Source: a virus
Taxonomy: Duplodnaviria; Caudoviricetes
Reading direction: 5' to 3' (one strand)
Length of the DNA: 47,925 nucleotides
Virus record (IMG/VR): IMGVR_UViG_3300026543_000024
Location: 1 to 47,925 of that record
Part shown: positions 26,696-41,557 of the stretch, piece by piece
Layout: each line of letters opens with the position of its first letter
Numbering within the stretch: position 1 is the first letter of the stretch
Translations under genes and position numbers: made by a program
Notes under the pieces: model-generated
The model's database searches: none
What the model saw: the letters and a program-made list of their open reading frames with translations, nothing else
Told to the model about the DNA's origin: nothing

Positions 26696-27506
26696 TCTAT
26701 TTTCAGGACTCAGTGACCTACCTGTCTTTGAAGGGCGATCCGAAGAGGATCGCCGTAGTGCCTTGTTAGCAACTGGATTAGGTTTGCTTCAGCCTCAGGA
26801 CCCTTTAGCTGGTGGAAACGCCTTAACACAATTAGGTGGTGGTGTGCAAGCAGGACTTACATCTTTAGATACGACAGCAGCTACAAATCGTGAAACGGAG
26901 CAGCAAGCATTCCAGAATATAATTACGGGTCGAGCGGCTGCTACAGATGAGACTCGTGCCGAATCCGGTCAGGTTGTAGCTGAGGCTGCTGCACTTAATG
27001 CAGAAACGAATGTAGCGGCGCAAGGACAAGATGTAACAGAGTTTAGCGCTGAAAAGGGTTTGCGTGAGGCCAAGATTGATTTGAATAAAGCGCAAGCTGA
27101 GTGGCTTCGTCGTCGATTTGCTGGAGACCCCAGCGCTTCTACTAAGGTAACTGCAGCTATGCTTGAAGATAAGGTTATTCAAGCTCAAATGGAGAATTTA
27201 CTTCGATCCGATCCAGAAAAATATACGTTATCTGATGGTAAGCCGAACATCGCTCTACTGACTGTACAGGCGTTTAACGATCTGCATAAAGCTAAAGGTC
27301 TAGCGGCTAGTGAGCAGCTAGGGCTTATTGTAAATACAGGAGAAGCAGAGGAGATCAGTGGAAATATATCTACATTGCAGGGACCTCCTCCAGAACCTGC
27401 TACAGAACCTCAAGTACAAGTCATTACAACTCTTGATGAGTTTAATGCATTGCCAATTGGAGCAGAGTATAGCCACAACGGACAAAAGTTCCGAAAGGAT
27501 AAGTAA
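26688..27506 (+). CDS. Internal virion / ejection protein
   Basis: GGAGG RBS before MANLFSG; ALLATGLGLL segment; helical. Confidence 0.7.
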   Translation: MANLFSGLSDLPVFEGRSEEDRRSALLATGLGLLQPQDPLAGGNALTQLGGGVQAGLTSLDTTAATNRETEQQAFQNIITGRAAATDETRAESGQVVAEAAALNAETNVAAQGQDVTEFSAEKGLREAKIDLNKAQAEWLRRRFAGDPSASTKVTAAMLEDKVIQAQMENLLRSDPEKYTLSDGKPNIALLTVQAFNDLHKAKGLAASEQLGLIVNTGEAEEISGNISTLQGPPPEPATEPQVQVITTLDEFNALPIGAEYSHNGQKFRKDK

Positions 27507-30500
27507 TGGCACAGTCAGGATTCGGCGGAACGCCGCTGTCTACCCTACAGCTTTCCCAAGAGGAACCAGCAGGGTTCGGAGGGACGCCGGCAGGTGAAGA
27601 GCCAGCGGGCTTTGGAGGCGTTCCGGTTAAGGAAGGGGGCTTTGGGGGAACGCCTCTTGATCCAGCACCACAAGACTCTACATCAGTAGGGATTACAACG
27701 CGGTTTGGAACACGGCAAGCCTTAACATCTGAACAGGTTCAACAGAATCAAGCACATGATGTAGTTCTTAATCAGCTTTCAGCCGGTGTTAAGGAATATG
27801 AGGATCAATTCAGCTTCCTAGAGCGACAGAGCATTCGGCTCGGTAAAGGTAATACGAGACTTCAAGCAAATGCTATGCTTAGAGAGATGGCGTCATTGCA
27901 GGAGCAACTCGTCGGTTTACAGAATCTGGAGCCAGAGGCATTAAAACGGTTTCAGATTCTCCAATCACCAAAGGGAGCCCTTGGACCTCCTGTTCCCGAT
28001 GCAGAGCGGGAACAGACTATTCAAAGCTTGCAAACTCGCTATGATGCAATAGAACAGGAGTACCTGTTCGTCTCCGATGCAGTGATGAATCCCACTTCAA
28101 ATGATGCAACTGGTACTGCTCGTGATGTTCCCGAGCATCCTGTCATGCAGGCCTTGCAACAGGCACAGTTGGCAGGTGATCAAAAGCTGGTTAATCGTAT
28201 AGGGCGGGAGTTCCTTCCTGAGACTATTGCAGAAGTTGCTTTACCTAGCATGACTCAAGCAGGTTGGTCGCAGTTATTAATTCCAGGTGGATTAGCAACC
28301 GTAGGAAAGTTAGCCTTGGGTTCTACTACAGCAGCCCGAGTAGGTTTCGTTGCAGGTACAGGTTTTGTCAGTGGTCATGTTGAGTCTAATGCTGCGTTCT
28401 CAGAGTTCTTGCAGGAGAATGGTGTTGACATTACGAATACCGCTGAGATAGCTAATGCGTTAAGTGATCCTGAACTAGTCAGGAAGGGACGAGCCTTTGC
28501 GACAAAGCGTAGTATCAGTATTGCGATGTGGGATATGGCAGGAGGTTATATAGCTTCAAGAAAGATTATGCCTCCAGGACTCACCAATAAATTTGCTCAG
28601 CAAATATCTAATGTGGCAGCACAAGTAGTAGCTCAACCGTTAACAGGATTGGCAGGAGAAGCAACTGCACAGATTGTTGCGGGGCAGGAGCCTAATCTAC
28701 TTGAGATTAAACTAGAAGCTATAGGTGAATTACCGAGTGCTATAACTGAACCTGTTATCTTCCACCTTGCTGATAAACTTGGTGGAAAGCCTAAAGATTA
28801 TGGCACTGTTGAGCAGATTCTGGATGCCTTCATAAAGAATCCTGAGATGACAATGGGTGAGGCGCTTACAGCTTTACAAGAAGTAGCCTCACGTGGTATG
28901 ACGGAGGCAGAAGCTATCAAAATGCTTGAAGCTATTCCAGGGGTTACTTTGGATACTGAAGCTATTCTTGGCGATCGACTTCATATGAGTGCTAAGGATT
29001 CTAAAAGTGGATTTCAAGAGAATCCATTGTTGAAACATTCACTCAGAGCTACATTATATGGAACTACTTCAGGAGAGATACTGACTGGCGATCAAATTCT
29101 TGATGCTGAAAAGGGTACAGGTAAAGTGTATTGGGCTACAGATCAGATGCTGGCTGATCCTGTATCGGGAGAAGCGAGTGGTATTGGAGTAGGTACAACA
29201 GCTCGTAGTCTTGATGCTATTGAGCTGTTAATCTCACAGGCTCAAGCTGACTTGAATATTGTAATGGCGCAGCAAGCTCCCTCTACTATAGTAAATCAAT
29301 TGTCAGATGAATTAGAAACATTAAAGGAGCGGAAAGCTCAATTTCAGCAAGATGAAAAAGTTATGTCTGACTTACGCCCAAGGTTACAGGGCTTGCTACA
29401 GGAGATGGTATCACTTTTCATGCCTAATACAGATATGTTAGTTATTGAGAATTCCTTTTTACGAGATCATTTTGAAGATAAAAGTGTCTTAGGTACTACG
29501 AACTCGAATAACTCAACTGTTACAGGGAAGCGGACTCAGTTACTTTATTTAAATACAAGGAAATTAATCGATCTTGATATGCAGGCGAATCCTAAACGTA
29601 AGCATGGGCCAAGAACCTTTGCTACAATGGCCTCAGTAATGGGGCATGAGTTTGGACACGCTATAGCCATGACTTGGTTCAATAAGCTTCCTACGGTAAT
29701 TCGTCAAGCATTACAAGTGGAGCATCGGAATTGGCTTGCTAAGGCATTAAAGGAGAATAAGGAGGAAACACTTCTACAGGATATTACAGGTTCTAAAAAT
29801 AATCCTGCACAGGAGAAAGATGTTAATCCGAATTTTAATGGTAGGCATCCAATAAAAGTTGTGCCTAAGAAGATGTTAAACTACCACCTTAGCTTTACTG
29901 AGTTTGTAGCCGACTTGATGGCAAGGCAGTTAGCTGGTAATAAAGAATCTACTATCGTAGCTCCATTGACCAAGAAATTCTTACCGCGCTTGCAGACACT
30001 AATGCGTAGGTATTTTGATAAGTATAGAGATCAAAATGTATTCTCTGCTGACCAGACCTATGATACGTTCCTGCAGTATCTAAGAGCTACGGCACAGACA
30101 ACAAAGATGGAGGAAATTAAGGGACAGTTTAGTGATACGGAATTGGCAATGCCTGCAGGTAATCAAGCTGAGAATGTATTCAGGTTACTGGACTCAAAGG
30201 TACTTAATATTGATTCAGAAATTCGTGATGAGGTAATGTCTAACCTTGACACGTATAATAAGCTTATGCGATATGGTGCTACTATCTTACAGCTTGGTAA
30301 AGAGAATAAACATATTGCTGGTTTGCAGAAGTATATTCGAGCGGTTCATGAGCATTGGATTACTAAGTCAAACTGGAATGATGCTGCTATGAAGTCAATG
30401 AATGCATGGCGGAAGCTAGGTAAGTCTGGCGATGAACTAGGCAGATTCTTAATAGAGTTAACTGTGAAGTCAGACGAGTTGGGTCGTGCCTTAACTAACG

Positions 30501-32965
30501 ATGAGATACAAGAGTTAATTGACGAAAAGAGGATTAATTTTGGAGATAAAGCGCCCCAAGCGTGGGAAGTGTATGCAAGGGTCAAAGGTGATCTTGCGAA
30601 TGCGCTTCAAGAATTATACATCATTGAGAAAAACCGTATCAATCAAGACTGGGCTGAATTTGAAACCCAGCGGAAAGCTAAGATACAGGAACTTGATACG
30701 CTCTTCTCTAAGCTTCGGAATAGAAATTACTTTCCCCTGTCGCGTTTTGGTGTCCTAGGGATTGCAATGAAAGCTAAGGAATCTGTGCAAATTGCAGGTC
30801 GAGGTTATGCTAAGGGTGAAGTAATGCACATGGAATTGTTTGAAGGTAAGCGACAACGGAATAAAGCGATTGGTCGCTTACGTCGTAAGTACGGTCCGAA
30901 GGTACAGGAAACTTTCTTCGCTGTAGATGAGGATATGAAACCTTTTGCAGGGCTGCCTATTGCTATCATGCGACAGTTAAAGCAGAACGATAAACTTCGA
31001 TTAACTCCAGAGCAGAAAACAAAGTTACAAGATATGATTGATACGATGAGTCCGACTCAATCTATTGCTAAGCGGATGCTGGAACGTAAGGGGACAGCGG
31101 GATTCAGTAACGATGCGCAACGAGGCTACGGTAACTACATGCTTATGATGGGTGGCCATATAGCTAAGATGCGTCATATCGGAGAGATGGATGCAGCAAT
31201 TGACTCGGTTAGGAAGTCTGCTAGATACCTAGGTGAGCGAGGAATCATCAATGACAAGCGGAATGAGATTGCAGGGCATCTTACAAGGCATCAAGATTAT
31301 CTGTTAAATCCTGTAAATGAGTGGGGTGGTATGAGAGCGTTAGCGTTCTTATGGTTCCTCGGCTACAATGTTAAGTCGGCGATCGTGAATTTGACACAAG
31401 TACCTTTAGTAGCTTACCCGTATCTGGCAGCGCGAGTAGCCTTGACAGGTGGTACAACGCTTAAGAGTGATGCGATTGCTATTGCAGCTCTTACTAAGGC
31501 AGGGCTTGATGTAGCGAACCTCTTTCGAAAGGGGATAAATAAATATACTGTAGACGAGCAGGAAATGCTTTCAGTTCTGCAGTCTGAGGGTATCATTGAT
31601 GAGTCACTGGCAACGGAGCTTGCAGGTGTAGCGCATGGTGATATGATCTCTAGAAACATGCCGAAGGAAACTGCCTTTACAACTAATGTTCAACGAGGTT
31701 CACAACAGTTTTTGCGTGGGTCTACCTGGATGTTTCAAGCGGCTGAAAAATATAATCGGAGGGTGGTTGGCTTAGCTGCCTATCGTTTAGCTCGAGAAAA
31801 GAATATGGATACCCAGACTTCTATTGATGAAGCTCGGGAAGCAATTCGAGCTACACAATTTGAGTATGCACGGTGGAATCGTGCTGCCTTTATGCGAGGT
31901 AAGCCAGGAGTATTCTTTGTATTCATGCAGTACCTGCAGAATGTACTGTACTTTGTAACGCGAGACCCAGGGAAAACCCGTTACATGCTGATGATGTTTA
32001 TGGCAGCTGGATTACAGGGACTTCCAGGAGCGGAAGACTTCCTGGACCTGTATGACTTTGCAGGAAATAAACTGAAAAAGTGGACAGGTTCTAAGCGTGA
32101 TCCACGGACTGATGTACGTGAGGATTTACGTCGCATGATTATGTCACTTCATGCTTCTCCAGAATTAATTATGCATGGACTAAGTGCTCAGAGTTTTGGA
32201 TTAGGAATGACCTCTGTAAATGATATGTTAGGTACAAGTCTACCTGCACTCAGCTTTGAGAACTCTATCTCTGCTGGTCGCGTCATTCCAGGTTGGGAAG
32301 GACTCATGAAGTTCTTTGGAGGTGGTCGTGTAGGACAAGCCGGACAGGTAGCAGGAGCAAAGGATGTATTAGGAGCTGCTATTACAATTCCTATTAATAT
32401 ACTTCAATGGCGTATGGATGCTGACCCTTCGGAGCTACGTGCCTTTGAACGCATGGCTCCTAGTGTAATAAAGGGGGCTACCCGAGCTTTTCGTATAGCA
32501 TCAGGAGCTAATGAGGAAGGGATAAGTACCTTTACGGACAGACAGGGTAGAACGATTGCTGATTTTGATATGAATAACTATGAGCATATAGCGGAGTTGA
32601 TTGGTATGTCCTTGGGTGCTGTACCTACAAGAATCCAGCGTGTTCAGGAAGCTAAGTGGGCTGAGAAGGAAGCGTTGCAATTTTATGGTGAGATGCGCGT
32701 ACGACTCCAGGTGAACTTTAACTATTCTATGGAGGATCGACGAACTAATCCTGATGGAGTTAAGGAAGTTAAAAAGGCTATCAAGGATTTTAATGCGAGT
32801 GTCCCTAAGGGACAACAACTACTCAACTTTGGACAGTCCTACATGGATTATAAGCTGGGCATCGAGTTTGATAAGAAAGGGGTTGGCCGTAGAATGCTTG
32901 ATCAACCTGTGCGTGGGGATATTCAGGAGACATTCCCTGCGGCTACTGAAGAACGCATTAAATGA
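27506..32965 (+). CDS. Large polyvalent internal virion protein (1819 aa) with HExxH zincin-like and PLxRFG motifs
   Basis: HEFGH...EFVAD; YFPLSRFG; N-terminal GFGG(T/V)P x4; last gene of the late arm. Confidence 0.8.
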   Translation: MAQSGFGGTPLSTLQLSQEEPAGFGGTPAGEEPAGFGGVPVKEGGFGGTPLDPAPQDSTSVGITTRFGTRQALTSEQVQQNQAHDVVLNQLSAGVKEYEDQFSFLERQSIRLGKGNTRLQANAMLREMASLQEQLVGLQNLEPEALKRFQILQSPKGALGPPVPDAEREQTIQSLQTRYDAIEQEYLFVSDAVMNPTSNDATGTARDVPEHPVMQALQQAQLAGDQKLVNRIGREFLPETIAEVALPSMTQAGWSQLLIPGGLATVGKLALGSTTAARVGFVAGTGFVSGHVESNAAFSEFLQENGVDITNTAEIANALSDPELVRKGRAFATKRSISIAMWDMAGGYIASRKIMPPGLTNKFAQQISNVAAQVVAQPLTGLAGEATAQIVAGQEPNLLEIKLEAIGELPSAITEPVIFHLADKLGGKPKDYGTVEQILDAFIKNPEMTMGEALTALQEVASRGMTEAEAIKMLEAIPGVTLDTEAILGDRLHMSAKDSKSGFQENPLLKHSLRATLYGTTSGEILTGDQILDAEKGTGKVYWATDQMLADPVSGEASGIGVGTTARSLDAIELLISQAQADLNIVMAQQAPSTIVNQLSDELETLKERKAQFQQDEKVMSDLRPRLQGLLQEMVSLFMPNTDMLVIENSFLRDHFEDKSVLGTTNSNNSTVTGKRTQLLYLNTRKLIDLDMQANPKRKHGPRTFATMASVMGHEFGHAIAMTWFNKLPTVIRQALQVEHRNWLAKALKENKEETLLQDITGSKNNPAQEKDVNPNFNGRHPIKVVPKKMLNYHLSFTEFVADLMARQLAGNKESTIVAPLTKKFLPRLQTLMRRYFDKYRDQNVFSADQTYDTFLQYLRATAQTTKMEEIKGQFSDTELAMPAGNQAENVFRLLDSKVLNIDSEIRDEVMSNLDTYNKLMRYGATILQLGKENKHIAGLQKYIRAVHEHWITKSNWNDAAMKSMNAWRKLGKSGDELGRFLIELTVKSDELGRALTNDEIQELIDEKRINFGDKAPQAWEVYARVKGDLANALQELYIIEKNRINQDWAEFETQRKAKIQELDTLFSKLRNRNYFPLSRFGVLGIAMKAKESVQIAGRGYAKGEVMHMELFEGKRQRNKAIGRLRRKYGPKVQETFFAVDEDMKPFAGLPIAIMRQLKQNDKLRLTPEQKTKLQDMIDTMSPTQSIAKRMLERKGTAGFSNDAQRGYGNYMLMMGGHIAKMRHIGEMDAAIDSVRKSARYLGERGIINDKRNEIAGHLTRHQDYLLNPVNEWGGMRALAFLWFLGYNVKSAIVNLTQVPLVAYPYLAARVALTGGTTLKSDAIAIAALTKAGLDVANLFRKGINKYTVDEQEMLSVLQSEGIIDESLATELAGVAHGDMISRNMPKETAFTTNVQRGSQQFLRGSTWMFQAAEKYNRRVVGLAAYRLAREKNMDTQTSIDEAREAIRATQFEYARWNRAAFMRGKPGVFFVFMQYLQNVLYFVTRDPGKTRYMLMMFMAAGLQGLPGAEDFLDLYDFAGNKLKKWTGSKRDPRTDVREDLRRMIMSLHASPELIMHGLSAQSFGLGMTSVNDMLGTSLPALSFENSISAGRVIPGWEGLMKFFGGGRVGQAGQVAGAKDVLGAAITIPINILQWRMDADPSELRAFERMAPSVIKGATRAFRIASGANEEGISTFTDRQGRTIADFDMNNYEHIAELIGMSLGAVPTRIQRVQEAKWAEKEALQFYGEMRVRLQVNFNYSMEDRRTNPDGVKEVKKAIKDFNASVPKGQQLLNFGQSYMDYKLGIEFDKKGVGRRMLDQPVRGDIQETFPAATEERIK

Positions 32966-33110
32966 ATGATTGTATTTTCTGTATGCCCGTATGCGGGGCG
33001 ATAATTTGAGCTGCATAACTACCCGCCTTTTTTCTGATCGTGGTGTAGCGATGGGAAAACGGGCTGTACGATTGATTCCTGAAGGATGAGAAGTCCGTAT
33101 ACTGTTTCGA

Positions 33111-34316
33111 CTAATCAAAGGGTACTGTCCCCTTAGCATAAATGATTTGACCTAATCGCTCGATCCGTTTGATGAAGCCTATAGCAGCGGCACTAGCCAT
33201 AGCCTCTTGATAATCTTTATACTTAAACTTATTTAATACCTTAGCATACAGGTCTACGTTAGAGACTTCACCTTTAAAACACACGTAACGGAGCAGGGCT
33301 TTGATCTCTCGCTGGTTATAATTAGTTCCAATACGGCTAAAGACTTTGGGCATGTCCTCTTCAAGATCTGCCACATAGTTGGAAGCGTTAAACAGATGAT
33401 GTTCTTCGATGATAAGTTTATCGTGTTCAGCAGCAGCGAGAACCATGGCCAGCTTGTGAATGTGCGTTTGTTTTCGTGCGATATATCCTCCAAAACGCTC
33501 TCCAACGAGGTCTTCGGGAGGGTTCCTATAATGCTTATCGTACCAGACTTCTCCGTAAGCCCGAGCTGCGTCAGACAATTTATATTCACCAGTAAGAGTA
33601 GTCGAAATGTGTCCGAGGTCTTGGATGAGTTTGAGTTGCATTTCGTAGAAGTCATGAGGTATCTCCGTATCAGTATAGGCTGTGAAGTGCCGTTTTTTTT
33701 CGGCATAGATAAAAACACAGCGGGAAGTGAAGCCCCCGCCTATTAAGGCATCGGGAAAATTTCCTGCTATCCAATCTGGTGTTGTACAAGCAAGTACATT
33801 TAGCCAGGGGTTTTCGATTAAGTTATTACCCTGTGTTTTGGTTAGCTTAGTCCAGATGCCAATCTGACCATCCCATAAGGATACAAGGGCGTCTACCATC
33901 TCGCGATCGTGTGGATTCAGGAAGTTTCCAAACTCGCTGCACACGCAGGTGAGGGCTGACATGATATGGTACTCACCATCTCCGTCAGTCAATTGAAACA
34001 TCTCCTTAGCTTCCTGCAGTTCTGCTACAAGTGCTTGCCACGTTACAGCATCTGGACCGAACTTAATCCCTTCTACCTGACGTAGCAGGTTCATTCCAAT
34101 GTTAACTGTGGTAGACTTTGATACTATGCCAGGAGGAGCTACGAATATGATATACATATTCGGTGTCCACTGGAAGTACTTCATGTCTAACCAGACGTGG
34201 CGACGTAGAGCTCCGGCGATTACAGATATGGCGGTCCAACGGTGGAAGTTCTTGGGGGCCTCGGAATGTCGGCTGTATTCAAGATAGGTTTCAATCCAGT
34301 TAGAGTAGTTACGCAC
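33111..34316 (-). CDS. DUF3987-type P-loop ATPase, putative replicative helicase
   Basis: SEAP..FH.W, PNMY...APPGIVSKST (Walker A variant), SEFG, LWDG and GGFTSR motifs. Confidence 0.75.
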   Translation of the reverse strand: MRNYSNWIETYLEYSRHSEAPKNFHRWTAISVIAGALRRHVWLDMKYFQWTPNMYIIFVAPPGIVSKSTTVNIGMNLLRQVEGIKFGPDAVTWQALVAELQEAKEMFQLTDGDGEYHIMSALTCVCSEFGNFLNPHDREMVDALVSLWDGQIGIWTKLTKTQGNNLIENPWLNVLACTTPDWIAGNFPDALIGGGFTSRCVFIYAEKKRHFTAYTDTEIPHDFYEMQLKLIQDLGHISTTLTGEYKLSDAARAYGEVWYDKHYRNPPEDLVGERFGGYIARKQTHIHKLAMVLAAAEHDKLIIEEHHLFNASNYVADLEEDMPKVFSRIGTNYNQREIKALLRYVCFKGEVSNVDLYAKVLNKFKYKDYQEAMASAAAIGFIKRIERLGQIIYAKGTVPFD

Positions 34317-34484
34317 CTAATCGTCGCCACCTTCTGTAAACCACCTGGCAAAGAACTCCTCTTTTCTTTGTTGATATAAGGCCTGTTCATGCTGCCATGA
34401 GGGAGAATGCTTATTGGTATTAGCCGTACGAACTAAGCTTTCTATAACTTTAAGGAAATCTTTAACCATCTTGTCAGGTATCAT
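34317..34484 (-). CDS. Small hypothetical protein
   Basis: GGAGGAG RBS before MIPDKM. Confidence 0.65.
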   Translation of the reverse strand: MIPDKMVKDFLKVIESLVRTANTNKHSPSWQHEQALYQQRKEEFFARWFTEGGDD

Positions 34485-34707
34485 CGTATTTCTCCTCCAG
34501 CCCTTGGGCTGGCTCATCATTACCATGTTTTCTACACGAAGGGCTAATACACTCACCTGCTTTATTTACAATGGTAATACCACAGCCTTCACAAATTACA
34601 GTCCAGCCGTAACCGTTTTTTAAGACCTTATTAGGGTGTAAATTAGCGAGATCACCAAAATCTTTTGTGAATATCTCAAGGCTACATTGTTTACAAAAAT
34701 CAGCCAT
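34474..34707 (-). CDS. Small Cys-rich zinc-binding protein
   Basis: MADFCKQC...CEGCG...C...C..H; GGAG RBS. Confidence 0.75.
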   Translation of the reverse strand: MADFCKQCSLEIFTKDFGDLANLHPNKVLKNGYGWTVICEGCGITIVNKAGECISPSCRKHGNDEPAQGLEEKYDDT

Positions 34708-34708
34708 T

Positions 34709-35479
34709 TCATTTCTCCAGTAGGTTACCTTGCCAGTCACTCTTGGCACAGTCGCCCCAGCTTTTATCGCTGTAGCTCAGGCCAGCAGGAATGATAAGGG
34801 GATCATCGTAAGGGATTGTTACCTTGAAGGCTTCTTCGATAGCGGGGAGCTTACGGCGGAATGTACGTTGCTTGACTTGAAATACAAGACTATCGTGAAC
34901 CTGTAACAGCACTTGAATGTCGGGGTCATTAAGGTTTTCGATAGCTCGCCACGCACGGTTGATGACCAAGGCGACAGTGGATTGAGGAATCCAAGCGAGG
35001 GCCTCCGGAAGAGCACGGTTAATCCTACCAAAGTAGACCCTACGGTTTCCGAAGCTATTCGTAATTGTCCGCTCGGTTTGTAATGCGGTATCAACGCGCT
35101 GTTTCCAATCAAGTATACCAGGGTGAGCAGTAAACCAAGTGTCAATAAAAGCTTCCGCCTCCTTGATAGTGCAGCCAAGAAGGAGTGCAAGTGCTCTTGG
35201 TTGTATATCATAGTTTACTGCGTGGACACCAGCCTTAGCTTTCTGGCGGAGGCTAGGACTCGTTCTTCCAAAAATATCCTGCGCGTTCGAATCATGTAAA
35301 TCTGCATCTTCATCTTGAAATATCTCCTTGAGCGCGGTATCGTCTGCTTCCCACGCAACGACCTGCGCATCGGCCTGAGCAAGGTCAGCGTCGCAAATGA
35401 AAAATCCTGGATCGGGTATGAAAATCCTTTTGATATTGGGTAGCGCAATTGTCTGTGCAACCATGTCATTTACCATCAT
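34709..35479 (-). CDS. polA: DNA polymerase family A, C-terminal catalytic subunit (motifs A, B, C)
   Basis: DADLAQADAQ (motif A), RQKAKAGVHAVNY (B), LLQVHDSLVF (C). Confidence 0.92.
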   Translation of the reverse strand: MMVNDMVAQTIALPNIKRIFIPDPGFFICDADLAQADAQVVAWEADDTALKEIFQDEDADLHDSNAQDIFGRTSPSLRQKAKAGVHAVNYDIQPRALALLLGCTIKEAEAFIDTWFTAHPGILDWKQRVDTALQTERTITNSFGNRRVYFGRINRALPEALAWIPQSTVALVINRAWRAIENLNDPDIQVLLQVHDSLVFQVKQRTFRRKLPAIEEAFKVTIPYDDPLIIPAGLSYSDKSWGDCAKSDWQGNLLEK

Positions 35480-35633
35480 CCTCCAGCGCTTGTGCTGGCT
35501 TTTCCAGTTTAGTAATACGCTTATCTATATCATGGAGCAATATTATAAGATTCCATCTCCATAACTCAGGGATGGAATCAGCAGGTAGAGGTGTGTTTCG
35601 CAGCCAAGTGTAGGCTTCCTTAAGCTCAGTCAT
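35466..35633 (-). CDS. Small hypothetical protein (55 aa, not in the track)
   Basis: MTELKEAYTW...ALEDDGK; GGAG RBS. Confidence 0.65.
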   Translation of the reverse strand: MTELKEAYTWLRNTPLPADSIPELWRWNLIILLHDIDKRITKLEKPAQALEDDGK

Positions 35634-35635
35634 GT

Positions 35636-35965
35636 TTAACTCCAGTCAGGTAAAGTTCTAAGGATAATTCGTTTGCCCATCTCTTGATAGATTTGCATTG
35701 CCCTCTTCATTCCTTTAGAGATACCTAGATCGGTATACACTACAACGTAATCGCAGTGTACACCCCACTGATAACCAGCGGCAATCCCCATGGCACGCTC
35801 TTCTTCCACCTCGTCACGGAGTACCTCGGGTTGTGTGTAAAGGAGGTGGGAGGCTAGAGGTGCCTCCCCCTTATGCAGGCAATCTGCCATAGCGAGCCTA
35901 GCATATAGCAGGTGTCGCTCGACGTTGCCAGCGTAGGGAGATTCAAGTATGACACAAGCACTCAC
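35636..35965 (-). CDS. Small Rossmann-like phage protein (nucleoside deoxyribosyltransferase/DUF4406-like clan)
   Basis: ESPYAG, GEAP.ASHLLY and GISKGM motifs. Confidence 0.7.
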   Translation of the reverse strand: MSACVILESPYAGNVERHLLYARLAMADCLHKGEAPLASHLLYTQPEVLRDEVEEERAMGIAAGYQWGVHCDYVVVYTDLGISKGMKRAMQIYQEMGKRIILRTLPDWS

Positions 35966-36138
35966 GGAAGAATTCTAGAGCTTATCTTGTTAAGAACTGC
36001 GTTCTGCTTATCAGAAAGCTCATAGTTCTCAGGCTTACCTGAAAGGGATTCGATAAATTCCTCCTCCCAATCAGATAAATTTCCATAAGCTGCAGAATTC
36101 ACGCAATCCTCTAGCAAGCGTAATTGAAAACCATTCAT
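35962..36138 (-). CDS. Small phage protein (58 aa, not in the track)
   Basis: LSDWEEEFIESL...LSDKQ..VL.KI motif; ATGA and GTGA overlaps on both sides. Confidence 0.75.
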   Translation of the reverse strand: MNGFQLRLLEDCVNSAAYGNLSDWEEEFIESLSGKPENYELSDKQNAVLNKISSRILP

Positions 36139-36422
36139 ATGGATTCCAGTCGAGATACTTCATGCTGTAGGTCATTAAGAACTCTAGAGTAGTCATCAAC
36201 CATTAGATTAATCTCTTGTTGAACACTTGCTTCAGTAGGTTGGCCTGGGGGACTTTCAGTCTCCACAGCTGGAGGTTCAGGCCCGATCATCGCCGTATTA
36301 ATACTGTTTAGGCGTCTTACAAGATTCCGTAAATCATTATAGATTCCAGTCATTGGCTCTAGAGAAGCAGTTAAGCGGCCTATGGGTTTGGGAGTATTTG
36401 CTGATACAGGTGGATTATCCAT
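36135..36422 (-). CDS. Coiled-coil hypothetical protein
   Basis: GGAGG RBS; coupled. Confidence 0.75.
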   Translation of the reverse strand: MDNPPVSANTPKPIGRLTASLEPMTGIYNDLRNLVRRLNSINTAMIGPEPPAVETESPPGQPTEASVQQEINLMVDDYSRVLNDLQHEVSRLESI

Positions 36423-36748
36423 TAGTATTGTCCCTCCATAGCGTCTTGAACTTTCTCTTCAATGAGTTCAGTCAATAAACTCTCCAGCGTGTCTGGCTCT
36501 GTTGCCGGCTCATGATTTGGTGCTACAACCAGACCCTTTTGCTCCATACAAGGGCGACAGAAGTCCTTCCAGTGGTCCTGTAGAAGGCGATTGTTACTGG
36601 TGGATCGTACAGATGGGTTAAATATCCGAGGAAAGGGTAGTTTAGGATTGGCGTTGCACACGGCAACAACTCCAATGGTCCAGAGTTCCTCGTTATTCTC
36701 TACAATATTCTCACAGTTGTCACAGGTTCTTAGTGTTACATTACTCAT
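36422..36748 (-). CDS. Zinc-finger protein (start MSNVTLRTCDNC)
   Basis: CxxC...CxxC; ATG 1 nt after the stop of the N-terminal polA gene. Confidence 0.75.
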   Translation of the reverse strand: MSNVTLRTCDNCENIVENNEELWTIGVVAVCNANPKLPFPRIFNPSVRSTSNNRLLQDHWKDFCRPCMEQKGLVVAPNHEPATEPDTLESLLTELIEEKVQDAMEGQY

Positions 36749-36749
36749 T

Positions 36750-38417
36750 TTATTTTTCCGTCCCCGAGGGGATAGTTTGTAAGTTTGCGCCTTGACCAAA
36801 CGCATCCTTCGATGATGAAAGTCGAAACGTCTCAGTGCCAGCCAAGTTATACGAGCATCGGATTCGACCGTCGTTCCCGAGAGGTGCCTCGAGGAAATTC
36901 TTTCTGAAGATGTTGACACTTCGGAGTTCCTTAATGTGTTGGATGATGGGAGAGACAGCGGCTTCTACCTGAATTAGCTTATCTAGAGCTTCATCATCGG
37001 TGGAGATTTGGCCAGTCTTTCTGTTTCGTTGCTTTGCTAGGTCAAGGTAGCTGTAGAAAAAAGCTTGACATTGCTGCGGAGAATTAAACCAACGAACCTT
37101 AGAGGTAGTATTCTCGGGGATGAAATTCCCTGACATGATAAGTAAGCGCTCTTCAAGTTGTCCTGCAATCTCAAGCAATTCAAGACTGAGTACTGCTCTT
37201 AAGGGTTTGTCTACCCTCACACCACGTAGCATTGCTCGAAAAACAGGTTTATACATTGACATTTGAAACTCGTACTGCGTTTGTTGTTCAGCGCTGTTAA
37301 GAAGTACAGGGAGTTTCGTTGCAATCTCATAGGTGTACACTGCATCTTTGCAGTTGTAGTTCCAGTATTGTAGAGGGTCTACAGGATAAGAGTTGTAGTC
37401 CTTTAGCTCGTCCTTCCAGTAACAATAGTGATCGCAAAAGAGGGAAGCGAGAAAGTCCAAGGATTTTTTCTCACCTGAAAATACCGTATGCCATGCGAGC
37501 ATCGTGTCCATGTCAATGTTAGGCTTGTACCCCCAACTTTTAGCGATATGCTGCATATCGTAAAGATAATTTTGACCGACAACTCGTGCGTTGGCATGTG
37601 TAAGTATTCTTTGCTGCAAGACCAGTATGTCAGTCTCTTCTTGAATCGTCCAGTAATTATGGTTTCCACCGCGTCCCTCCTCAGGAGTCATAAATGGGAT
37701 GCAGATTGCATCGGTTGCTGACCATGCAATACCAGAGCAGCTGATGTATCGATTGATTGTCTCCAGATCATGAGCTAACAGCATTGGACCTTTTTCAAGG
37801 CGAGTTAATAACATAGTTAAGGTAGCATCTACTTGTAAGATATCAGGTTTAATTCTGAAATTCCATTCTGGATTTGAGTAAGTTTGTGTTAAGCTCTCTG
37901 TCATGATACGTTGCAGATCATAGACTGCTATGTGTCTCCAGTCCCAGACCTTCAGAATCCTCGACGGTGCATACGTTGGTATAACTTTAATTCTGCGACC
38001 TTGAATCTCACAGCCCATTCGTGAGCCGCGCCACTTAGCCACAGACTTCTCTCCCGTAAGAATGAACAGGGATAGGTCGCCAAGAGCAATAACGATCCTA
38101 CAATTAGATTCATAAATCGCTTGCCATACATGATCTACGTGCTCCTGATATTTAGGTTTAATAAAGGGGTTCTTCTTAGTCCAATCCTCCACGTAACATT
38201 TGGAGTCGAAGTAAGTATGCTTTGGTATGCTGAACACCATGTCATGATAGCAGTCAAAGAACTCGAAGCCAGCTTCGCGGCACATCTTCTTGAACTCCTG
38301 TCCACTGCCACCACTGAAATGATAACCGCGATTCCAGTCATTTATCTCAGCGAATTCTCCAAGGATAAAGATACCATTGGAGTTCTTAGGTTTAAAGGTA
38401 TGAGTTACACGCTCCAT
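36750..38417 (-). CDS. polA: DNA polymerase family A, N-terminal subunit: degenerate UDG-like domain, 3'-5' exonuclease and thumb
   Basis: ILGE...FSGGSG...IVIALG...WRGS...PTYAPS (UDG-like); HDLET, NYLYD, YNCKD (Exo I-III); GVRVD, NSPQQ, STDDEAL, TETFRLSSS, NLQTIP. Confidence 0.9.
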   Translation of the reverse strand: MERVTHTFKPKNSNGIFILGEFAEINDWNRGYHFSGGSGQEFKKMCREAGFEFFDCYHDMVFSIPKHTYFDSKCYVEDWTKKNPFIKPKYQEHVDHVWQAIYESNCRIVIALGDLSLFILTGEKSVAKWRGSRMGCEIQGRRIKVIPTYAPSRILKVWDWRHIAVYDLQRIMTESLTQTYSNPEWNFRIKPDILQVDATLTMLLTRLEKGPMLLAHDLETINRYISCSGIAWSATDAICIPFMTPEEGRGGNHNYWTIQEETDILVLQQRILTHANARVVGQNYLYDMQHIAKSWGYKPNIDMDTMLAWHTVFSGEKKSLDFLASLFCDHYCYWKDELKDYNSYPVDPLQYWNYNCKDAVYTYEIATKLPVLLNSAEQQTQYEFQMSMYKPVFRAMLRGVRVDKPLRAVLSLELLEIAGQLEERLLIMSGNFIPENTTSKVRWFNSPQQCQAFFYSYLDLAKQRNRKTGQISTDDEALDKLIQVEAAVSPIIQHIKELRSVNIFRKNFLEAPLGNDGRIRCSYNLAGTETFRLSSSKDAFGQGANLQTIPSGTEK

Positions 38418-38629
38418 AGCGTACCTATAAGCATACCAATGCCTACACCTAGCCAGAAAAATAAACCACCATAAATTAGTAAAAACCTTAAATTCAAATG
38501 TTTGACCCCGAATTTTTTAAGGGTTTTTGATAATGCAATCATTCGGCAAGTCTCCGCAATCTGCTTATTAGGATTCTCCCACATGAAAGTTCCAGGGGCT
38601 TCATTGTCTAAATTAGTAGGCCTTTTCAT
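38405..38629 (-). CDS. Small membrane protein
   Basis: C-terminal hydrophobic helix. Confidence 0.65.
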   Translation of the reverse strand: MKRPTNLDNEAPGTFMWENPNKQIAETCRMIALSKTLKKFGVKHLNLRFLLIYGGLFFWLGVGIGMLIGTLWSV

Positions 38630-38805
38630 TCAACTACCCTGACCTTTGCTAATCCCATAAAGCCACCTGTACCCTCATAAACTCTTTTAGCAAAGCCGTC
38701 TAAAATGAAGCGATTAAAGGATTCAATTTCTTCATCGCTAAGAGTACCAACATGATAACCATTAAAGCTTCTAATTAAATCTCTATTAGCTTGTGTACTA
38801 TTCAT
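38626..38805 (-). CDS. Small hypothetical protein (start MNSTQAN)
   Basis: GGAG RBS; coupled. Confidence 0.65.
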   Translation of the reverse strand: MNSTQANRDLIRSFNGYHVGTLSDEEIESFNRFILDGFAKRVYEGTGGFMGLAKVRVVE

Positions 38806-39001
38806 CAGTATCTCCGGCGTTAGCCATATTAACCTTGATTTTAACAATTTCAGCTTTATGATTTTCATACATCTCACGGTTCCAAGCCTCGAGGTTGGCA
38901 ACGCGAGCTAGTAGGGAATCAATAAGGTCTTCAGCTTCACTAAAGGTTCGAGGAAATACAGGATCATTCCACTCTTTTATTTGATCATCTAGTTTGCTCA
39001 T
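38798..39001 (-). CDS. Small coiled-coil hypothetical protein
   Basis: ATGA coupling to the methyltransferase gene. Confidence 0.7.
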   Translation of the reverse strand: MSKLDDQIKEWNDPVFPRTFSEAEDLIDSLLARVANLEAWNREMYENHKAEIVKIKVNMANAGDTDE

Positions 39002-40335
39002 TCGCCAGTATCTCCGAAGTTAGCTATATTTGCTTCATCTCCAATCTCAGCTTGGCGAAGTTCTTCGTCCTCGGCTATTGACAGATCAAGGCGTTTCGAC
39101 GCATAACCTACAGCTATCGGATCAATTTCAATTCCAAAAGCCTTACAACTTAGTTCGTTTGCAGCGGGGAATAAGGGCCCAAGTCCACAGCAAGGGTCAA
39201 GCACCGAATCACCTGGTTGTACACTTCGTGCAAGTAAGTCAAGATATAAAGTGGTTGGTTTCTCGGCGCCTCGACGTTGTCTTGTAAGAGTACGGATAGT
39301 AATAAGATCTGGGGCAACTCGGGTAACTGGTTTATCTCCTTTACTAGCGAAGAGTATGCATTCATAAGTATATCTCGGGCCGTGATCGGGGCGAGCCAAA
39401 AGGCCATTCCCTTTATTCCATATGAGGGGTCGTGGCCACACTGACCAACCAGCACGTTCCATCTCTCGTTGTATGAATCTCCCGTTGGTATACTCGTGGA
39501 ACACATAGGCGTGTGCTCGAAGCTTACAGACACGAAAACCCTGTACTGCAATGGTGGTGATGATTCGTTCAAAGTTCTCTCTTGTGTCATTGTAAACATG
39601 GGTTATTCCCTCTTGGGCGTTGAAGTCTTGAGCATCTATCCCGTAGGGCGGATCGGTGCAAATTACATCGAAGGTATTTGCATCTAAGTTCGCCATTGTT
39701 TGTATCATGTCCGCTGCGAACAGGATGTGAGGGCTGTCGATGTTGTTTAATTGAAACTCGGCAGCTAAAGAGGCGTTATGTTCATCGCGCTTCATTCGCG
39801 TGATAACCTTCATCGCATCTTTTCTGGATTTGGTTTTGGCTACTTCAGGGTTGGTAGCAAACTCGTCAATTAGGAGGGCATCTCGAATGTCCATCGAGAA
39901 TAGTTTCTTTCCAGGCTTAGATAGTTCTACCGCGGTGTCAAGTTTAGTTTGACCAGGGTTTTGTTGTACTCGTAGTCGATGAAGGTCAGCTCTAGCTGCG
40001 GCCTCTTCGTGTACCGACAGATCTTCGCGCATAAGGTTCTCTTCCAGCTCGGCTTCCATAATAATGTTGACTGTAGAGCTGCCCAGTTCCGTATACGGGA
40101 CGAGTCCCTCTGGTACTTCAACGCCTTGATAACGAAGCTGATGCTTAAAAGCTGCCATAATAGAGATTGCCTTAAGGCGCCTCTCACCACATACCAACAC
40201 CCCATTATTAAGGATAGGTGCATGGAGTAAACCCAAACGCGCAATTGAATCTGCAAGATTTGCCAGTTTAACTTCATCGAAGGTTCTACGTATTCGTACG
40301 ACAATTTTAATCTCCTTTAAAGGGATTGTTTTCAT
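38998..40335 (-). CDS. ParB/Srx N-terminal domain fused to an N6-A/N4-C DNA methyltransferase (beta class)
   Basis: LADSI...GLL..P...GERRLKA...EENL.REDL; TDPPYG (motif IV) before VLDPCCGLG (motif I). Confidence 0.88.
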   Translation of the reverse strand: MKTIPLKEIKIVVRIRRTFDEVKLANLADSIARLGLLHAPILNNGVLVCGERRLKAISIMAAFKHQLRYQGVEVPEGLVPYTELGSSTVNIIMEAELEENLMREDLSVHEEAAARADLHRLRVQQNPGQTKLDTAVELSKPGKKLFSMDIRDALLIDEFATNPEVAKTKSRKDAMKVITRMKRDEHNASLAAEFQLNNIDSPHILFAADMIQTMANLDANTFDVICTDPPYGIDAQDFNAQEGITHVYNDTRENFERIITTIAVQGFRVCKLRAHAYVFHEYTNGRFIQREMERAGWSVWPRPLIWNKGNGLLARPDHGPRYTYECILFASKGDKPVTRVAPDLITIRTLTRQRRGAEKPTTLYLDLLARSVQPGDSVLDPCCGLGPLFPAANELSCKAFGIEIDPIAVGYASKRLDLSIAEDEELRQAEIGDEANIANFGDTGE

Positions 40336-40337
40336 AG

Positions 40338-40562
40338 TTACTTCTTATTTTTAAGGTTAGTTTCAAGTTCTATTATATTATGCTCTATAACCCAAGTATC
40401 TAAAATAGATGAGCCTATTAATTTTTGCAGTGCAGTTAAGTCACCTTTATCTTTAAACTTTCCTGCATCAAAAGCTTTGCGAAGGTGATAAACTGCCTTA
40501 TGTTTTAAAGGCAACGTACGCTTCATAATCTGAATACGCTGCTTAATGGTAGAGACTTTCAT
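40338..40562 (-). CDS. Small basic hypothetical protein
   Basis: AGGAGG RBS. Confidence 0.75.
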   Translation of the reverse strand: MKVSTIKQRIQIMKRTLPLKHKAVYHLRKAFDAGKFKDKGDLTALQKLIGSSILDTWVIEHNIIELETNLKNKK

Positions 40563-40636
40563 CTCAATACCTCCTAGTTAAATGTGTAGGCTTTGCACCT
40601 ACTCGACGATCATATCTAGTATCGCTACAAGATGAG

Positions 40637-41071
40637 TTAAGCGCGAACGCTTCTTACTTCAGCAAATACGCCACCCTTTTCACCGAGACGATGCTTGATA
40701 TCTACGGTTGCGACTTGACCAAGGAGGTTAGTCGGTTTCCAAGGGGCTCCGGTGTTCTGACCAAGAGCATCACGCAGCCTGCCAAGCTGTACATTTTTGT
40801 TCTTGCCAAATTCAAGGGCACCAGCCTCGGTAAAGTCTAGCCAGACTGTCTGTTTTGTAGTTGGCTCATCCATGCCAAGCAGTTCACGAACTGAAGCGTC
40901 ATCAACGATCCAGATAACTTCCATAAAAGTAGAACCTTTCGGTGTCGTTCCAGGTTTAATTTCCTTAATTACGGCTTGATATTCAGCTTCAGGAATTGGG
41001 GTAAACTCCGTTTCCAGTTCAATCTCAACTTCAGTTGCCATAAAGGCATCAGCATTAAATGATGTAGTCAT
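40637..41071 (-). CDS. Putative ssDNA-binding protein (DUF669-like OB fold)
   Basis: FTPIPEAEY.A.I...L..L..ALG...LLG...V.I pattern; near the Sak4-like ATPase; own promoter. Confidence 0.65.
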   Translation of the reverse strand: MTTSFNADAFMATEVEIELETEFTPIPEAEYQAVIKEIKPGTTPKGSTFMEVIWIVDDASVRELLGMDEPTTKQTVWLDFTEAGALEFGKNKNVQLGRLRDALGQNTGAPWKPTNLLGQVATVDIKHRLGEKGGVFAEVRSVRA

Positions 41072-41159
41072 AGTTGTCTCATAGGTAGTTCAGTTAGTCG
41101 GAAGAGTTTTACGACTTCTCGGTCGATTCCAGGGGAATTATTTAATTATTGCATCTTGC

Positions 41160-41189
41160 ATCTTAACATACAATAATTCAAGTTGTCAA
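41160..41189 (-). promoter_or_regulatory. sigma70-type promoter
   Basis: TTGACA-18 nt-TAAGAT with extended TG. Confidence 0.6.
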
Positions 41190-41557
41190 GCGGCTTTTGC
41201 TTGGTTCTCCATTCGACGAAGGTGATTAAGACATTTCTTCTTACGAAGTAGGGCTGTAGCTTGATTGTAGTAATCTTTACCGGAAACAAAACCACTTGAC
41301 TCGCTGGTATCACGATAATCTCGGCAGAACATCATGTTGTTGCCTTCAATATGAGTAATCCCAAAGAAGTCAGCAAATCCATCTGAGCCATTTAGACGGA
41401 TTTCTAATTGTATTTCGGGATACTCTCCTTGATAGTTAGCGATAAAACACTTATGATCGAGTTTATTGTGTGAGTGAGCCATACCGTTAAATACACAGCA
41501 TTCCTCGACAGTTTTAATGTGCATAGTCATGGCACAGAATAGTTTTACATTTTTCAT
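41186..41557 (-). CDS. Hypothetical protein
   Basis: GAGG RBS; 123-aa ORF. Confidence 0.7.
   Translation of the reverse strand: MKNVKLFCAMTMHIKTVEECCVFNGMAHSHNKLDHKCFIANYQGEYPEIQLEIRLNGSDGFADFFGITHIEGNNMMFCRDYRDTSESSGFVSGKDYYNQATALLRKKKCLNHLRRMENQAKAA

Follow-up and report, generated by a model that had tools for sequence, protein, structure and literature searches.

The complete virus record IMGVR_UViG_3300026543_000024 (47,925 nucleotides (nt), with direct terminal repeats of 117 nt; hereafter the window) encodes a family A DNA polymerase (PolA) with an N-terminal uracil-DNA glycosylase (UDG)-like domain as two genes on the minus strand, separated by five small open reading frames (ORFs). 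Chain 1 (36750..38417, 555 amino acids (aa)) would supply the exonuclease, the thumb and the TETFR arginine, while chain 2 (34709..35464, 251 aa) would supply the two catalytic aspartates and the fingers. Taking structure prediction together with comparative data, we consider it very probable that this UDG-exonuclease-PolA is made from two genes whose products reassemble non-covalently into one enzyme, and the active site is predicted to be shared between the chains. A preliminary description, made from the letters of the window alone, had proposed a two-subunit PolA. This proposal is supported by a break that is conserved among relatives, intact catalytic residues, purifying selection and a passing model of the complex, while the non-covalent assembly itself is a prediction. 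The two-gene PolA of the window is real and inherited, and it is most likely a functional two-chain enzyme.

The two polymerase genes and their products

The two polymerase ORFs and the five between them have the coordinates given in the preliminary description, which did not mention the strand. It had also recognized the exonuclease, the thumb, NLQTIP and the end of chain 1 at SGTEK and a stop codon, but it overlooked the UDG-like domain. Searches of chain 1 against Pfam and NCBIfam identified the UDG-like domain (residues 15-158 in Pfam) and the 3'-5' exonuclease (198-370), with a match to positions 32-136 of the DNA_pol_A profile (PF00476); the thumb, TETFR and NLQTIP follow. Chain 2 carries the LPNIKRIF strand and motifs A, B, 6 and C, and matches positions 140-357 of the same profile (E value 9e-28). 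Since the first match ends at position 136 and the second starts at 140, the halves abut in the profile, and nothing is missing or repeated. The break therefore falls at PF00476 position 136-140, about 185 residues beyond the exonuclease. These two halves are the only PF00476 matches in the complete genome and both are above the cut-off. Chain 2 also aligns to Pol I of Bacillus and Escherichia coli. Its location within 34709-35479 was correctly described, and the ORF is open from 35479, but the likeliest start is the ATG at 35464 (MVAQTIAL), because MVAxT is kept in L094-L098 and other loci despite a different gene in front. With this start the gap is 1285 nt instead of the earlier estimate of about 1.27 kb. 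The five intervening ORFs are tightly packed, as had been described, and take up 99% of the gap.

The residues that define a family A DNA polymerase (Asp, Lys, Tyr and Asp of motifs A, B and C, and a TGR-type arginine) are all present across the two chains. The exonuclease residues D217, E219, D287 and D358 and also R532 of chain 1 are invariant in 53 of 53 aligned sequences, and N545 is invariant in the alignment of chain 1 sequences. In chain 2, D27, K77, H81, Y85 and D191 are invariant in 58 of 58. Both halves are under purifying selection. We ran 16 pairs for the ratio of nonsynonymous to synonymous substitution rates (dN/dS), among which four were nearly identical and several were saturated. 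Three unsaturated, diverged split pairs (L025/L035/L075) gave dN/dS of 0.04-0.10 for both halves, and two unsplit pairs (L037/L040/L041) gave 0.04-0.06. Between the window and its relative L006, dN/dS was 0.079 for chain 1, and the synonymous sites of chain 2 were saturated.

To place the break on a structure, an AlphaFold2 model was made of an unsplit relative, L012 (27-sequence alignment; mean predicted local distance difference test score (pLDDT) 92.9). The model matches Pol I structures (E value 5e-30, template modelling score 0.80 by target) and has the Klenow fold. The linker at the break is coil in this model, and its length is 8-29 aa in 34 of 35 unsplit sequences. The two 10-residue blocks with the lowest pLDDT are 341-350 (68) and 541-550 (79); the latter is the site of the break after NLQN, and the former is the site of a second break within the exonuclease (see below).

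The preliminary description had suggested modelling the two chains together, and the complex model of the window's chains 1 and 2 reached a score of 0.87, while the highest of three controls was 0.01. The mark for this type of model was reached by 116 of 157 solved pairs and by 2 of 215 mismatched pairs. There are about 150 residue contacts, the runs agree on at least 91% of the contacts, and the partner pLDDT is at least 89. Residues 8-18 of chain 2, which form its new N-terminal strand, are predicted to pack on residues 398-403 of chain 1, and the TETFR segment is predicted to pack against the helix following motif 6.

Recurrence of the break and its alternatives

An IMG/VR scan with chain 2 gave 88 relatives, and the best 80 of them, together with the window and five GenBank phages, made up a first set of 86 loci. 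The same break was found in 35 of the 86, with differing genes in the gap, as the preliminary description had anticipated when it suggested a database search. In the split loci of this set the break is 2-15 residues past NLQN(I/L)x, mostly 3-6. After dereplication at 90% and removal of four loci with short halves (L007, L011, L038, L080), 27 of 64 were split. A second set of 84 loci (the best 80 of 225 metagenome relatives and four from a genome scan) contained 37 split loci, nine with a free-standing second gene whose chain 1 is off the contig, 37 with one chain and one unclear. Its labels were assigned automatically, it was not dereplicated, its contigs partly overlap the first set, and the tail of L123 is atypical. 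A DNA-level search of a phage collection gave no match, and a search of viral contigs with chain 1 found only the L006 contig.

In the split loci where both genes are seen, the gene order is kept and the separation is at most 1.8 kb. The closest relatives (76-88% identical in chain 2) have the break too, with different gene sets in the gap. The same break is carried by independent assemblies that are 71-88% identical and by a cultured Vibrio phage, VS-ABTNL-3, whose annotation shows two polymerase genes flanking a single gene of 184 aa. Microcystis phage Mel-JY34, ctMlz233 and Desulfofustis phage MD01 have a one-chain polymerase.

A second break site, at about residues 340-350 of the window's chain 1, falls between WK and the Exo III motif of the exonuclease. 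It is used in L004 (Caulobacter phage Kuura), L019, L046/L047, L051 and L053/L054, with gaps from an overlap to about 660 nt, and no locus of this group carries the NLQN break as well. In addition, the reading frame changes near residue 370 in L070. L083-L085, which are otherwise unsplit, have an in-frame insertion of about 300 codons at motif B of the chain 2 region; this insertion is likely to be an intein.

Split and unsplit forms are interleaved on the trees, from most of which the long branches L004 and L005 were excluded. The concatenated trees have 7-8 state changes, of which 3-4 are forced by starred branches, and the two half-trees have 5 and 9. A single split clade was rejected by the approximately unbiased test (p = 6.9e-7 for the concatenated alignment, 3.4e-5 for chain 2 and 2.7e-59 for chain 1). 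We infer at least three changes of the split state on the trees, and the break is likely to have arisen more than once. In the concatenated trees the window falls in an all-split clade of seven sequences (support 98-99) that includes VS-ABTNL-3, with the gapless L009 deepest, while in the chain 1 tree it is next to the unsplit L012 (93). The clearest independent fission is that of L023/L052, which are gapless and nested in a starred clade whose other members are unsplit. Fission on several occasions, re-fusion, and recombination between halves may each have played a part.

The break falls in a family-specific loop of variable length whose Gly-acidic tail often resembles a Shine-Dalgarno (SD) sequence. 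We propose that a new stop overlapping a new start would turn one gene into two coupled genes, a state represented by six gapless or near-gapless loci, and that the new boundary would then gain and lose small genes as other operon boundaries do. Ranked by anti-SD pairing within its own gene, the 21-mer after NLQNIP reaches the top tenth in 21 of 27 split sequences and in 9 of 35 unsplit ones. In split sequences the pairing site is that of the next gene, and the one observation pointing to a loop predisposed to splitting is the weaker SD-like excess in unsplit sequences, from which such a predisposition may be suggested. A bolder and rather doubtful extension is that the loop is a built-in perforation. 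The ribosome-binding-site-like surface loop would be recut and perhaps rejoined, the catalytic half (fingers, motifs A-C) would be a separately inherited, swappable module, the gap would be a slot for dUTPase or ribonucleotide reductase, and the exonuclease loop would be a second fixed joint.

Several points weigh against our interpretation of the split and its history. Because the two chains together make up a domain similar to solved Pol I structures, a passing complex model is expected and may reflect this likeness. The ranking of loci used their similarity to chain 2 of the window, which favours split loci, and thus the proportion of split loci does not estimate a population value. All trees are rapid ones (LG+G4 or FastTree), and they cannot tell fission from re-fusion. 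Since the half-trees place the window differently, recombination may inflate the number of changes. The SD-like signal in unsplit sequences is modest (the nine of 35; median percentile 0.22) and the sequences are not independent.

Four ways of explaining the gene arrangement compete with a reassembled two-chain polymerase, apart from an artefact. The halves might function separately or bind different partners, with chain 1 serving as an exonuclease or DNA-binding protein on its own and chain 2 acting with a host or phage factor. In favour of this, the genes are separated by up to 1.8 kb of cargo and the two half-trees disagree in places, but chain 1 keeps the thumb, the TETFR arginine and NLQN, for none of which a role is known without the palm, and chain 2 has no thumb. 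Moreover, the kept gene order and proximity and the passing complex model argue against separate functions, which we regard as improbable. Alternatively, the gap might be removed from the RNA as a group I or II intron or by an unknown ribozyme, so that one chain is made. Introns are common in phage polA genes according to the available text of PMC10580990, the 34 cargo ORFs include one HNH endonuclease (in L017), and 20 in-frame U...G junction pairs can be found by sequence alone, although this is the number expected by chance. No Rfam match was found at E value <=1 in window positions 34000-39000, nor was any found in 10 of the first set's 34 other split loci, and because 99% of the gap is coding there is no room for a non-coding intron core. 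The content and order of the gap also vary between close relatives, six loci have gaps of less than 80 nt without an ORF, and chain 2 retains its own Met-Val-Ala start. Splicing of this kind is therefore very unlikely, and the earlier statement that there is no homing endonuclease, intron core or intein motif at the break held in Pfam, PHROG, NCBIfam and Rfam searches.

A single chain could also be produced by ribosomal frameshifting or bypassing, and indeed chain 2 is in the -1 frame at all six gapless or near-gapless junctions examined. However, TAATG and ATGA overlaps yield a -1 frame by themselves, no common slippery heptamer was seen by eye at the six junctions, and the gap of the window is 1285 nt with five genes, while the known bypass in T4 gene 60 is 50 nt. 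We give this explanation hardly any weight. Protein trans-splicing by a split intein, making the locus a fractured gene, would join the chains after translation. The new ends have five residues after NLQTIP and eight before PN, and the 13 together are within the 8-29 aa of the unsplit linker. Intein halves would not fit here unless the intein came from a cargo protein. There is no Cys or Ser start, no His-Asn end and no Hint match in Pfam, and trans-splicing seems extremely unlikely. Equally remote is a misassembly or a dead, broken gene, since the break is shared by the independent assemblies and the cultured phage, the catalytic residues are intact, and both halves are under selection. A two-chain polymerase that reassembles thus remains the reading that we prefer.

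This reading carries the range of natural PolA splits beyond domain boundaries, to a break running through the active site. One family contains a graded series of one chain, overlapping genes, and one to five cargo genes, and together with a cultured phage this makes it possible to count and test gene fission and re-fusion events in an essential enzyme. The position of this natural split, after NLQN and before motif A, might guide the design of split-polymerase tools. Annotation pipelines would call such genes truncated or intron-broken, though they are probably whole.

Cargo genes and other features of the locus

The preliminary description regarded the break as an insertion site for small genes, and this agrees with the variation of the cargo among relatives. 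The gap behaves as an ordinary gene boundary of an operon. Its length ranges from a stop/start overlap (L009, L023, L024, L029, L068) up to 1810 nt, and the gaps that contain ORFs are 73-100% coded. In representative loci, 34 cargo ORFs were searched against Pfam, giving six dUTPases, two Lon_C, one ribonucleotide reductase, one methyltransferase, DUF7768, DUF3310 and the HNH endonuclease mentioned above, while 18 had no match. The six dUTPases are in the gaps of L021, L031, L049, L050, L072 and L081, and the ribonucleotide reductase (574 aa) is in that of L076 (6218-7942); these gaps are all within one split clade of 11 sequences. In L026 and L030 the sole cargo is a gene of 174-180 aa for a free-standing protein resembling the Lon C-terminal protease.

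In the window, the five cargo ORFs are on the minus strand with spacers of 1, -1, -4, -4 and 2 nt, and none of them is a homing endonuclease in Pfam, PHROG or NCBIfam. ORF 1 (36422..36748, 108 aa) has two CxxC pairs and no match in these three databases. It is 62% identical to an ORF in the L006 gap and is also present in the gaps of L094, L096 and L097; its Atlas look-alikes are weak and are unnamed viral proteins. ORF 2 (36135..36422, 95 aa), also without a family, is 28% identical to a gap ORF of L006 (pairwise E value 1e-7) and 39% identical to one in L094. The homologs of ORFs 1 and 2 are in reversed order in L006. ORF 3 (35962..36138, 58 aa) belongs to no family and has no homolog among the loci searched, and its Atlas look-alikes are hypothetical proteins of 54-56 aa, with two of three clusters mostly viral. 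The Atlas searches gave no function for ORFs 1 and 3. ORF 4 (35636..35965, 109 aa) is the only one of the five with a family, DUF7768 or nucleoside 2-deoxyribosyltransferase-like (PF24963, E value 3e-27; phrog_355, E value 2e-20), and has homologs in the gaps of L006, L094-L096 and L149/L150. ORF 5 (35466..35633, 55 aa) has no family, is 69% identical in L094, and its stop is 1 nt ahead of the likely start of chain 2.

A 22-nt hairpin-like sequence ending in GGAGGA (35479..35500, minus strand) is upstream of chain 2, and a second copy at 34493-34514 makes a direct repeat (91%). Among 174 loci, the repeat was found only in the window and L094. The hairpin z was -0.5 for the copy upstream of chain 2, -2.5 for the second copy and 0.2 for the end of chain 1. 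As there was no conservation beyond L094, we dropped this sequence as a candidate regulatory element. The genes flanking chain 2 on both sides end in PAQxLE, and the repeat is possibly a duplicated gene end left by recombination.

The UDG-like domain of chain 1 matches PF03167 at the cut-off (24.3 bits) and TIGR00758 far under the cut-off (E value 5e-6). The catalytic motifs of family-4 UDGs are GEAPG, an Asn and HP. These residues are lost in the window, which has GEFAE, no Asn and YAPS, while GEAPG, TNV and HPAA are retained in many relatives, split and unsplit alike. From this motif comparison, the domain is likely to be structural and inactive in the window. The nucleotide pocket region (chain 2 residues 27-34 and 77-85) departs from the textbook PolA across the family. 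His81 is at the F762/B3 position of motif B, as aligned to Bacillus Pol I, and is His in 58 of 58 sequences. The steric-gate Glu position is Asp in at least 90% of the sequences, and the next Arg is Gln in the family-wide consensus. The available text of PMC10201439 gives only Phe, Tyr and Leu as B3 residues, and our literature search found no description of His at this position in a PolA.

Upstream of the polymerase genes is a DNA methyltransferase (N6/N4, with an N-terminal extension; 38998-40335), and such a neighbor is present in 73 of 85 loci. Downstream is a DUF3987 gene (33111-34316; 'primase' in PHROG), with such a neighbor in 80 of 85 loci. The window has podovirus-like head genes, an SU10-type portal and capsid in Pfam. 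A virion-type protein of 1819 aa (27506-32965) has no Pfam match, and its C-terminal half weakly resembles the DarB-like antirestriction family of PHROG. No tRNA genes were found. A promoter scan of 33000-41500 gave 19 hits against 16.2 expected, and a terminator scan gave seven against 6.5 expected, nothing that could be used.

Comparison with known split polymerases

Phage genes that are split or bypassed include the family B polymerase genes gp43A/gp43B, fractured intein genes and T4 gene 60 with its bypass. The preliminary description implied more novelty for a split PolA than there is, since the accessible parts of PMC10201439 and PMC10580990 already report split PolAs, and Pseudomonas phage LUZ24 is annotated with separated genes. 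Our literature search, with most subscription papers outside its reach, found no description of the split in this UDG-PolA family, and it found no paper naming VS-ABTNL-3 with 'DNA polymerase'. What is new here is the repeated occurrence of the break in a single loop, together with gapless intermediates and a cultured phage in which the split can be tested.

In the text available, PMC10201439 presents the exonuclease/polymerase fission of T7-like cyanophages as the first PolA split, with an AlphaFold-predicted complex, and also describes UDG-PolAs, while in PMC12695635 the same split serves to define a clade. Phages S-SBP1 and S-TIP37 resemble the window in that fission occurred through a new stop and an overlapping new start, with chains predicted to reassemble (PMC10201439, PMC12695635, as far as these texts are accessible). 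In the S-SBP1 type, however, the cut is at the exonuclease/polymerase boundary, the polymerase domain is whole, a single ancestral event is described, and the genes are adjacent. In the family of the window the catalytic domain itself is divided, the break recurs and cargo genes lie within it, and thus the family, though it would work in a similar way, is not of this type. In LUZ24 (NC_010325) the PolA parts are also apart, with eight genes between gp25 and gp34, but the separated part is a 169-aa exonuclease, and gp34 carries the thumb along with the TGR motif and motif A.

A close published arrangement is that of the OM43 phages MEP401 and MEP402 (Zobellviridae), whose PolA, according to the accessible text of PMC10580990, is interrupted within the polymerase domain, an unknown ORF separating the two parts; that text leaves the question of an intron open and reports no test of assembly. 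Like the window, MEP401 (OP830906) is cut between NLQN and motif A and has a small ORF between the genes. Its chain 1, however, is 387 aa and starts with the exonuclease, and the cut is after the IKTLF strand, leaving five residues of its chain 2 ahead of the motif A aspartate. The window is cut about 12 residues earlier, with the IKxxF strand on chain 2. The two cuts are on opposite sides of this strand, and neither the same cut position nor shared ancestry was found (MEP401 was outside the trees).

Single-chain UDG-PolAs of the N4-like cluster 17 and SPO1-like phages have the UDG-exonuclease-polymerase order of the window in one chain (PMC10201439, in the text available). The cluster 17 enzymes have Phe at B3, while the window family has His in all of its sequences, and thus the family does not belong to that cluster. 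The unsplit family members Mel-JY34, ctMlz233 and MD01 share both domain order and gene neighborhood with the window, but have one chain. VS-ABTNL-3 (Vibrio phage vB_VspS_VS-ABTNL-3, MF497422) belongs to the same family and has the same break, with its chain 1 ending in NLQNLPKGDG and a stop codon; it differs from the window in having a single cargo gene, the one of 184 aa, which has no Pfam match.

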